From IMG/VR virus record IMGVR_UViG_3300045988_094645: a stretch of 57,970 bases of DNA. One strand, 5' to 3'. The notes under the pieces were generated by a model, which saw nothing but the letters and a program-made list of their open reading frames with translations, was not told where the DNA came from and searched no databases. Positions within the stretch are counted from its first letter, which is position 1; every line of letters begins with the position of its first letter. This stretch comes from a virus. Below, in pieces: positions 15,129 through 15,767 of this stretch. A program made the translations under genes and the position numbers.

Positions 15129-15767
15129 CTAATTTCTACGAATACCAACATCAACAACAATAGCGTGAGGGCAAGCCTCTCTTGTCAAAGTAAAATCTCC
15201 AACTGCGGATACTACTAAATCTGCTATTCTTGCTAAATAAAGCTTCGCATTTACATTTGTTTTACTGTGACAGATAGATACAGTCATATTTCTCGCCAAC
15301 AACTCTTTCGCCATTGGCTTACCAACTATATTACTTCTACCTAATATTAAAGCACTTTTACCTTCATACTTAAAACCACAGTCATCAAGATAGTCTACTA
15401 TTCCTCTTACCGTTGCCGGTAAAACAAGAGTAGAAGAAGTTAAACCGTCGCAGTCTTTTATCGTAGGAATTACATCAATAGAAAAAGAACTCAATGAATC
15501 TCTTAGTGGCATTTGTGCTATAATACAATCAGTATCTATACTATTTATGTAATTATTTAAATCTGCGGGAGTCCAGTGTTCTGGAACTTTAATCACGCTT
15601 ACTGGCCATCCTAATTCATCAAAGTCGTCTACTTTTTTCTATATATAAATCTAATTTCCGGCATCCCCGTTAGTTGCATCAATTATGGTCAATGATGGCT
15701 TGACATCGGACTGCCGCAATTCATCTTTCTATTGTTTAAAATATTCTTTTATGTTAATCTATTGCAT
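15129..15767 (-). CDS. folD: FolD-like bifunctional methylenetetrahydrofolate dehydrogenase/cyclohydrolase (~212 aa) with five in-frame TAGs in the N-terminal part
   Basis: supplied ORF 15129-15596 contains GKSALILGRSNIVGKPMAKELL...VSICHSKT...ADLVVSAVG...IVVDVGI. Upstream in frame: ...TIIDATNGDAGN[TAG]IYI[TAG]KKVDDFDELGW..., where the first TAG aligns with the conserved Gln of the FolD motif PASQIYV. Confidence 0.6.

Follow-up and report, generated by a model that had tools for sequence, protein, structure and literature searches.

A predicted phage FolD with TAG as a sense codon and a probable thymidylate-synthesis partner in a common gut phage

On the minus strand of a 57,970-nucleotide stretch of viral DNA (IMG/VR record IMGVR_UViG_3300045988_094645; hereafter the window), positions 14976..15767 hold a gene that, judged from its sequence, is an intact, phage-adapted FolD. 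To our knowledge, FolD is the only enzyme that links the methylene-tetrahydrofolate (methylene-THF) pool, used for thymidylate, to the formyl-THF pool, used for purines and formylmethionine (fMet). The reading that we favour, with a probability of about 0.72, is that the gene encodes a functional bifunctional phage FolD that is translated in genetic code 15 (TAG as Gln) by means of a phage tRNA(CUA) and supplies one-carbon units both to ThyX, the flavin-dependent thymidylate synthase of the phage, and to host purine synthesis. An earlier note, made from the letters of the window alone, had recognized a recoded FolD homologue at this place, and the homology held up: both Pfam domains were found, solved FolD structures matched end to end and the predicted model has a FolD-like fold.

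We found that the open reading frame (ORF) begins with an ATG at 15767-15765 and, when TAG is read as sense, runs for 263 codons to a TAA at 14978-14976, with six in-frame TAGs, no in-frame TAA or TGA and no frameshift. The start at 15767 is correct because relatives open with M-x-Q-(I/L/V)-N-I-K-E-Y at the N terminus. The gene had been thought to end at 15129, which is wrong: this is the last base of the fifth TAG, and the frame runs on for 51 codons past it, through a stretch that holds '...STPVPGGVGLLT...', the family's signature C-terminal motif, with PVPGGVG at 15059-15039. The five TAGs counted at that time are exact for the interval 15129-15767 (first bases 15761, 15731, 15653, 15641 and 15131) and one too few for the whole gene, whose sixth TAG, at 15002-15000, lies beyond that end.

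The C-terminal Pfam domain, THF_DHG_CYH_C (PF02882), matched at 1.5e-35 (122.3 bits against a cut-off of 27), and PHROG 7320, the phage FolD family, matched at 1.4e-43. Among solved structures, 26 distinct FolD/MTHFD chains were recovered, the best being Campylobacter jejuni FolD (7.5e-31 over residues 5-260), and the matches together extend over residues 5-261. At the level of the protein sequence, this resemblance is far beyond chance. We built an AlphaFold2 (AF2) model from a 41-sequence family alignment whose first row, P0001, is a 263-aa database protein that differs from the window FolD at one residue (V186I). (P numbers denote database proteins and L numbers the contig loci of relatives; L179, L194, L229 and L241 lie on contig IMGVR_UViG_3300045988_093451, hereafter contig 093451.) The model had a predicted local distance difference test (pLDDT) score of 95 and a predicted template-modelling (pTM) score of 0.92. 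Its top 50 PDB matches in Foldseek were all FolD/MTHFD (TM-score (TM) 0.80-0.87), and it superposed on human MTHFD1 and Escherichia coli FolD at TM 0.87 with a root-mean-square deviation of 2.4-2.8 Å. The N-terminal catalytic, folate-binding domain (PF00763; residues ~5-107; 15447..15755, minus strand, as are all features of this gene) contains four of the six TAGs, has a pLDDT of 90-98 and includes I6, K7, Y9, Y41, D48 and W54, which are invariant in the clade. The C-terminal NAD(P)-binding Rossmann domain (PF02882) spans residues ~112-261 (14985..15434).

Consistent with a FolD identity, the catalytic residues are intact on alignment to solved FolDs and in E. coli numbering. The catalytic motif Y41-x-x-x-K45 (15633..15647), whose middle codon, 43, is a TAG, corresponds to E. 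coli Y50 and K54, and Asp107 of the K-D-x-D-G motif (15447..15449) aligns with D121. We take E. coli D121 (human D125) to be the active-site Asp and human Q100 to be the counterpart of E. coli Q98. The earlier note had placed a TAG at a catalytic Gln; that TAG, codon 39, corresponds to E. coli Q48, and the catalytic Gln85 (E. coli Q98) is written CAA (15513..15515). The other mapped pairs are I147 with I170, I209 with I232, R211 with R234, P239 with P260 and G240 with G261. Among 101 family members, Y41 is kept in 101 and K45, Q85 and D107 in 96 each, and the NADP and PVPGGVG motifs are essentially invariant. The dinucleotide-binding motif G143-R-S-N-I-V-G149 (15321..15341), in which G143, S145, V148 and G149 are invariant, reads GASNIVG in bacterial FolDs and GRSKIVG in human MTHFD1; the motif H167-S-K-T170 (15258..15269) is the same as the 'HSKT' of human MTHFD1; and the family signature P237-V-P-G-G-V-G243 (15039..15059) occurs in 100 of the 101 members. 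Given its HSKT identity with the NADP-dependent human MTHFD1, the window FolD would be expected to prefer NADP. In E. coli FolD, K54 is essential for cyclohydrolase activity, Y50, Q98 and G261 shape the active site, the role of Q98 being established by mutagenesis, and P260 and G261 contact the ligand (PMC5688156). That paper gives roles for all the mapped residues other than D121, and every residue named there fits the E. coli sequence used for numbering in letter and number.

Reading TAG as sense lengthened genes across the window: the longest ORF grew from 465 to 2904 aa, and read-through restored TerL, which has 14 TAGs, and, along with the remaining tailed-phage structural genes, a tape-measure-like protein of 2841 aa with 98 TAGs. 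All 42 window genes examined stop at TAA or TGA, and none at TAG. For FolD alone, we checked by alignment whether its TAG sites are Gln in relatives. Codon 3 (15759..15761) is CAA or CAG in 17 TAG-free relatives. Codon 39 (15651..15653), which lies in an N/S-Q-x-Y motif, is CAA or CAG in 23 relatives and His in 2; the position is Gln in C. jejuni, Pseudomonas aeruginosa and E. coli FolD (bacterial S-Q-x-Y) and Asn in human MTHFD1. The other four TAGs occupy variable surface positions: codon 13 (15729..15731; Glu in relatives), codon 43 (15639..15641; Arg or Lys), codon 213 (15129..15131; Glu, Asn or Asp), which had been taken for the end of the gene, and codon 256 (15000..15002; Asp, Glu or Val). 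Within FolD, TAG is thus a sense codon and most likely encodes Gln.

Under the standard code (code 11), the longest intact piece of the gene is only 155 aa (15129-15596), as it might be if a host FolD had decayed to a pseudogene in a standard-code genome and its N-terminal part were non-coding. We regard this as highly improbable and rejected it. The six interruptions are all TAG, with neither an in-frame TAA or TGA nor a frameshift; dN/dS values of 0.05-0.28 indicate purifying selection; and read-through restores TerL, the tape measure and all the long genes of the window, with a tRNA(CUA) on a near-identical contig. The N-terminal TAG-bearing segment, raised earlier as possibly non-coding, contains the invariant YxxxK motif, and relatives without TAGs have conserved it.

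Scans for tRNA genes found none in the window or in twenty 20-kb FolD loci. The regions that contig 093451 shares with the window are mostly ~99.5% identical to it, and the two FolD genes differ by a non-synonymous pN of 0.003 and a synonymous pS of 0. A walk of ~35 kb on this contig reached a tRNA(CUA) gene at L194:11108-11182, which has G73 as its discriminator, pairs weakly at 1-72 and is 65% identical to tRNA-Gln(UUG) of the same phage; the tRNA array of the contig holds more than 30 genes, including two for tRNA-Met. Together with read-through across the window and Gln at TAG sites in relatives, this tRNA bears out the recoded dialect proposed earlier, and the gene, to judge by these signatures, is written in code 15. 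The same array contains a full-length ROOL RNA (L179:13624-14219; RF03087, 350 bits) and a transfer-messenger RNA (tmRNA; L179:10747-11077; RF00023, 71.6 bits). Between tRNA-Gln(CUG) and tRNA-Leu it also contains a 120-nt tRNA match (L179:14486-14605; Rfam 50.9 bits) with perfect acceptor, D and T arms and a 47-nt insertion in the anticodon arm, which standard ARAGORN missed. ARAGORN can render this match as a tRNA-Ser with a 43-nt intron, an assignment that we distrust given its weak anticodon stem.

FolD belongs to a widespread phage-specific clade and is a bona fide phage auxiliary metabolic gene (AMG). A large protein collection contains more than 100 cluster representatives of ~260 aa and 46-100% identity on 55-150-kb contigs, and 159 IMG/VR contigs encode FolD relatives. 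In a scan of 185,579 species genomes, whose seed motif favours gut and rumen Bacilli-like FolD sequences, the sole clade member lay on an 11-kb contig binned with an Oscillospiraceae metagenome-assembled genome (54% identity), and the cellular FolDs recovered were all 36-41% identical and mostly from gut and rumen Bacilli. The window FolD is flanked by the TerL/structural module and phage accessory genes, with synteny on more than 100 contigs. In its operon, which is divergent to the g16208-g17305-TerL packaging module (synteny across L001-L063), it comes first or second, and this position is kept even where TerL is 65-78% identical and FolD only 37-40%. Pairs with unsaturated dS gave the dN/dS values cited above. 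Because the clade is phage-specific and no more than 41% identical to cellular FolDs, its place by the packaging module is fixed and it is under purifying selection, FolD is long-resident, as the earlier note had held, and not a recent capture from a host.

Many FolD matches in deposited phages come from fragments of 2-13 kb that lack annotation and are possibly of host origin, which raises the idea that bacterial DNA was joined to the window by mis-assembly or contamination. For the window gene this is scarcely credible, and we rejected it: the order of packaging module, divergent promoter, the small upstream gene up112 where present, FolD and accessory genes recurs on dozens of independent 55-148-kb contigs from different samples, FolD is written in the phage's TAG dialect at late-gene density, and no cellular FolD exceeds 41% identity. 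No deposited phage matched 20 kb of the window in a megablast search. Exact copies of the window proteins encoded at 249-731 and 54558-55016 (both minus strand) occur in 1,878 and 1,158 public-assembly blocks, respectively, most of them within contigs of 50-200 kb; in gut samples that have been sequenced, this phage is extremely common.

Neither ThyA, ThyX, dihydrofolate reductase (DHFR) nor ribonucleotide reductase was found in the window by tblastn with Enterococcus phage H1 proteins or by Pfam searches of the non-structural ORFs, in agreement with the earlier remark that no thymidylate synthase was seen there. Two window proteins lie on one 147,169-bp contig in the European Nucleotide Archive, which places the window at ~18.9-78.9 kb of that contig and makes it ~40% of a ~147-kb genome; scaffold_7 of ENA ERZ28625867 is an example of a complete ~147-kb contig. 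Other contigs measure 101-148 kb, and two of ~291-295 kb we infer to be dimers. Beyond the window, the proposed link to thymidylate became stronger. On contig 093451, a 208-aa ThyX (L241:14666-15292; PF02511, 1.6e-48; 3 TAGs) directly follows the topoisomerase II subunits and DNA ligase, and sister lineages carry ThyA and DHFR. By comparing the names of contigs in the FolD and topoisomerase scans, we found FolD together with a thymidylate synthase on all 11 contigs for which both regions were covered: with ThyX on 5 (FolD loci L004, L008, L010, L023 and L028) and with adjacent ThyA and DHFR on 6 (L011, L013, L019, L021, L026 and L029). Other viral contigs have ThyA immediately after FolD. Used alone as a scan query, H1 ThyA matched two close relatives only, a reach too narrow to bear on the FolD clade.

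At the same spot after the topoisomerase genes, L241:14666-15292 has ThyX alone and L244-L261 (~14.5-16.1 kb) show either ThyX alone or ThyA followed by DHFR; one thymidylate-synthase system has cleanly taken the place of the other in a single phage group. FolD stays paired with a thymidylate synthase through this swap, which is the strongest evidence we have for a role of FolD in thymidylate synthesis, where it would supply or balance 5,10-methylene-THF, and FolD very probably works with the phage's own ThyX. On contig 093451, an NAD+ salvage and synthesis cluster at L229:13472-18039 comprises an isochorismatase/nicotinamidase, a phosphoribosyltransferase, a 529-aa NAPRTase-family protein and NAD synthase. 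Two further stretches, L229:11156-12430 and 18830-20270, hold Thg1, an RNA ligase and a kinase-like ORF recognized by eye. These L229 stretches and the NAD+ cluster are TAG-free save for one TAG in the RNA ligase. DNA polymerase and ribonucleotide reductase were not located in the genome stretches covered, which comprise all but ~15-20 kb.

These data suggest how the gene might act. The window would encode an NADP-type 5,10-methylene-THF dehydrogenase/5,10-methenyl-THF cyclohydrolase, and a phage-encoded tRNA(CUA) would translate its TAGs as Gln. In an infected Bacillota host, Oscillospiraceae being among the candidates, the enzyme would interconvert 5,10-methylene-THF and 10-formyl-THF, keeping the one-carbon pool matched to the demand of a replicating AT-rich ~147-kb phage genome, with methylene-THF passing to the phage ThyX and formyl-THF to host purine synthesis. 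FolD would be transcribed as the second gene of an operon whose near-consensus promoter faces away from the packaging module. Since the third codon is a TAG, full-length FolD would appear only once the suppressor tRNA is available.

The FolD reaction is reversible, and its 10-formyl-THF also feeds purines and fMet-tRNA. An active enzyme might therefore have been selected for translation instead, providing 10-formyl-THF for formylation of initiator Met-tRNA as one member of a translation-support set with the tRNA array, tmRNA, peptidyl-tRNA hydrolase and tRNA-repair enzymes. It is established biochemistry that 10-formyl-THF is among the products of FolD; the PTH2 gene for peptidyl-tRNA hydrolase lies 1.3 kb downstream in the same operon, a peptidyl-tRNA hydrolase is also near FolD in Enterococcus phage H1, and the near-identical contig encodes more than 30 tRNAs (two of them tRNA-Met), a tmRNA, Thg1 and an RNA ligase. 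However, no homologue of the formyltransferase Fmt was seen in any examined stretch, and the only folate-dependent enzyme found is thymidylate synthase, paired with FolD on 11 of 11 contigs despite the exchange of ThyX for ThyA and DHFR. Selection for translation is unlikely in our view, although the two roles are not mutually exclusive.

Several points weigh against a functional bifunctional FolD that serves ThyX. The N-terminal Pfam domain, THF_DHG_CYH (PF00763), passes its cut-off marginally (3.9e-8; 34.0 bits against 32.8). Throughout the clade, 9-11 residues are missing behind the D-x-D-G motif, and I6 stands at the position of E. coli G8 and L244 and R247 at those of the ligand-contacting P265 and V268; G8, P265 and V268 are not family-defining residues. 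In E. coli, the G8S variant has its dehydrogenase activity cut to 21% and its cyclohydrolase activity to ~1% (PMC5688156). The phage enzymes may therefore depart from E. coli FolD in kinetics, in substrate preference or in how the two activities are balanced, and the enzymatic activity of this phage clade is a prediction from conserved residues. The thyX and tRNA(CUA) genes come from the near-identical contig and not from the window, and we infer that they share a molecule with it; the walk left ~15-20 kb of the genome (~89-104 kb of contig 093451) unseen. Sequence does not fix the net direction of flux, part of which may go to purines and fMet. Two rare database variants, P0004 and P0005, on 44-kb and 15-kb contigs, join residues 1-193 of FolD to the gene that follows and have lost the last ~70 FolD residues, including PVPGGVG; they may be natural losses of function, in which case FolD may be dispensable, or assembly artefacts.

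The clade-wide changes also raise the idea of a neofunctionalized FolD-like clade that kept the fold and remodelled its pocket for another reaction, as a monofunctional dehydrogenase or cyclohydrolase, on another pterin or polyglutamate substrate, or in modified-base synthesis. The replacement of G8 by Ile, P265 by Leu and V268 by Arg fits such a shift, as do the 9-11-residue deletion by the active-site Asp, the weak N-domain score and the many members without a precomputed N-domain match, the Cys-rich tail fused to FolD in some members and an evolution much faster than that of TerL (37-40% against 65-78% identity). Yet every known catalytic residue is kept and nearly invariant, the AF2 model overlays canonical FolD at TM 0.87, no DNA-hypermodification genes were noticed, and the thymidylate synthases are ordinary ThyX or ThyA with DHFR. 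We consider neofunctionalization improbable, and a functional bifunctional FolD remains our preferred reading.

The expression signals of the FolD operon are predictions from consensus matches and geometry. In the 115-bp gap between up112 and g16208, we found two back-to-back near-consensus sigma-70-type promoters, each with 11 of 12 matches and an extended TG. One, predicted to drive the up112-FolD operon, lies at 16126..16154 on the minus strand (TTGACC, 17 nt, TG-n-TATAAT; a consensus match only), and the other, predicted for the packaging/structural module, lies at 16162..16190 on the plus strand (TTGACA, 17 nt, TATTAT). A candidate ribosome-binding site, AGGGAGG, precedes the ATG of up112. 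The up112 gene (15754..16092, minus strand) encodes 112 aa with 3 TAGs, and its 3' end overlaps the start of FolD by 14 nt, an overlap kept in L001, L002 and L167. The earlier note had suggested this gene as a pathway partner, an idea that we did not find borne out: up112 matched nothing in Pfam, PHROG or PADLOC, its homologues form 5 clusters among 5.8 billion proteins, in the nearest sub-lineages only, and most relatives with FolD do not have it upstream of that gene. It is a lineage-restricted orphan and not a conserved partner of FolD; its AF2 model (pLDDT 48) was unusable.

Downstream, dn119 (14617..14976, minus strand; 119 aa, no TAG) overlaps the FolD stop with its ATG (TAATG) and ends in an IPC-x6-C-x3-C-x4-C-K motif; it too had no Pfam, PHROG or PADLOC match. 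In L167 (10001-10864), P0003 and P0006, which represent two sister lineages, the C terminus of FolD continues in frame into a homologous Cys-rich tail of 30 aa, and this fusion suggests that FolD and dn119 may physically associate. Further downstream, 13339-14417 (minus strand) encodes a microbial-type PARG (PF10021) and the PTH2 peptidyl-tRNA hydrolase; the counterpart in one relative spans L167:11156-12962, where a SIR2-domain gene follows the pair. The PARG, PTH2 and SIR2 genes could have NAD/ADP-ribose and tRNA counter-defence functions. The ORF at 9168-9632 (minus strand) has an 'FDMDGTIADL' HAD-type DxDGT motif and no Pfam match at E <= 0.01; it may encode a 5'-deoxynucleotidase, which would be another nucleotide-pool enzyme.

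FolD carries an unusual TAG load for its operon. With TAG at 6 of 263 codons (22.8 per 1000) and at 6 of its 12 Gln positions, it is level with the structural block (23.9 per 1000), and its rate is seven times that of the remaining leftward-operon genes (3.2 per 1000; P = 2.4e-4). All clade relatives are recoded in their long genes, and their FolDs contain 6 TAGs in the window, L004 and L001, 3-4 in L002, L005-L010 and L167, 1 in L030 and 0 in L011-L029. The number of TAGs in FolD therefore varies among recoded lineages, so that the gene predates, or is independent of, its own recoding; with a TAG at codon 3, the FolD of this lineage drifted, or was driven, to full dependence on the suppressor. 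We propose, tentatively and with considerable doubt, that the TAGs of FolD, and likewise those of ThyX, serve a function and put thymidylate and one-carbon enzymes under translational control of the code switch. A strong host-type promoter might then transcribe them, with protein made only after suppressor tRNA had built up, and sister FolDs without TAGs would be code-neutral. As part of the same tentative proposal, the remodelled pocket and occasional Cys-rich tail might mark a phage-specific FolD variant with altered regulation or partners.

TAG use elsewhere in this phage group is also uneven. Inside the TAG-rich late block, five structural genes on the plus strand are TAG-free (23479-24168, 24188-25240 (YonB-family), 25302-25838, 28983-30377 and 31935-32465), with neighbours that reach 52 TAGs per 1000 codons; one guess is that they encode the most highly expressed virion proteins, in which TAG is avoided. 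A 468-aa lysin with 11 in-frame TAGs (L236:14950-16356) adjoins a holin-like gene, which fits the published idea that recoding gates lysis genes. The TAG-poor leftward block at ~6000-13000 (minus strand) has a GC content of 0.41-0.49, against 0.32-0.36 elsewhere, and third-codon-position GC of 0.79 in the gene at 6167-6568; beside the low-GC FolD/up112 pair, it looks compositionally foreign or mosaic. Near tail-fibre-like genes (53731-54513, plus strand), the window encodes a 405-aa reverse transcriptase at 55656-56873 (minus strand; PF00078, 1.8e-16) with 6 in-frame TAGs. A 545-aa Big_3/DUF6273 protein is encoded just past the window (L168:5489-7126), and L179:17804-19141 has a weak Mtd_N match; the reverse transcriptase region may be a diversity-generating retroelement.

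With its own FolD and ThyX, a very prevalent gut phage, with marker proteins in more than 1000 assembly blocks, would have its own route from the one-carbon pool to deoxythymidine monophosphate (dTMP). Standard-code annotation breaks this recoded FolD down to a 155-aa fragment, and AMG surveys may under-count such genes. The series of 0 to 6 TAGs in one conserved enzyme offers a natural test of whether recoding times metabolic genes, besides lysis and virion genes.

Compared with E. coli FolD (1B0A/5O22), C. jejuni FolD (3P2O) and human MTHFD1 (1A4I), the window FolD has the same two-domain fold (TM 0.87), aligns end to end and shares the YxxxK, Gln, Asp, GxSxxxG, HS(K/R)T and PVPGGVG motifs, but it is 30-34% identical to them, ~20 residues shorter, interrupted by six TAGs and phage-encoded. 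Closer in setting are Enterococcus phages H1, EF1, EF5 and VRE9_1-4, whose FolDs also fall in PHROG 7320, whose TerL is ~50% identical (H1, 50.6%) and which combine FolD with thymidylate synthase, peptidyl-tRNA hydrolase and a tRNA array; in H1 one block comprises FolD, NrdD/NrdG, thioredoxin reductase, ThyA, DHFR and peptidyl-tRNA hydrolase, followed by the tRNA array. Their FolDs, however, are 31.6-32% identical and lie ~36-40 kb from TerL, whereas here the gene stands beside the packaging module, and the annotation in their records shows intact genes under the standard code. Lak megaphages of Prevotella (~540-550 kb) and other huge phages likewise show FolD in gut phages, and we presume that Lak phages also reassign TAG, but Lak FolDs are ~31-32% identical and belong to an unrelated phage lineage with hosts of another phylum. 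In T4, frd encodes dihydrofolate reductase and td thymidylate synthase, phage enzymes of the folate cycle that sustain dTMP synthesis, and the sister lineages here similarly have ThyA and DHFR besides FolD. T4 is not known to have FolD, which acts one step upstream of that pair by supplying the one-carbon unit, and the window lineage uses ThyX, which regenerates THF without DHFR.

Gut phages that use code 15 with a tRNA(CUA) are established, for example phAss-1 and crAss-like phages (PMC10607447, PMC9523058). They share with the window lineage a concentration of TAGs in structural and lysis genes, a phage tRNA(CUA) and TAGs at Gln-conserved positions, and TerL of phAss-1 is 44% identical. By contrast, phAss-1 gave no FolD match and its paper names no folate genes (PMC10607447), and in the window an auxiliary metabolic gene, not virion genes alone, carries the TAG load of late genes. 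The view that FolD is uncommon in tailed phages stands as far as deposited records go: we found it in 53 of 50,697, all less than 38% identical to the window FolD, and many of these are short and may be host DNA. Annotated copies occur in Enterococcus phages EF1, EF5, H1 and VRE9_1-4, Vibrio phage D479 and a WO prophage region, and unannotated copies in 15 of 15 Lak megaphage records. That view does not fit a gene with a PHROG of its own, annotated in Enterococcus phages related to this one and listed (as K01491), beside thymidylate synthases, in the top 50 gut-virome AMGs by frequency (PMC11938785). Literature searches, which were noisy in that 'folD' collides with 'fold', returned no experimental study of a phage FolD. 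Phage FolD and code-15 phages are both already known, and the basic picture is unchanged; to it, the present lineage adds, modestly, a gradient of 0 to 6 TAGs in one enzyme, a swap between ThyX and ThyA with DHFR while FolD stays constant, and a clade-specific remodelling of the FolD pocket.

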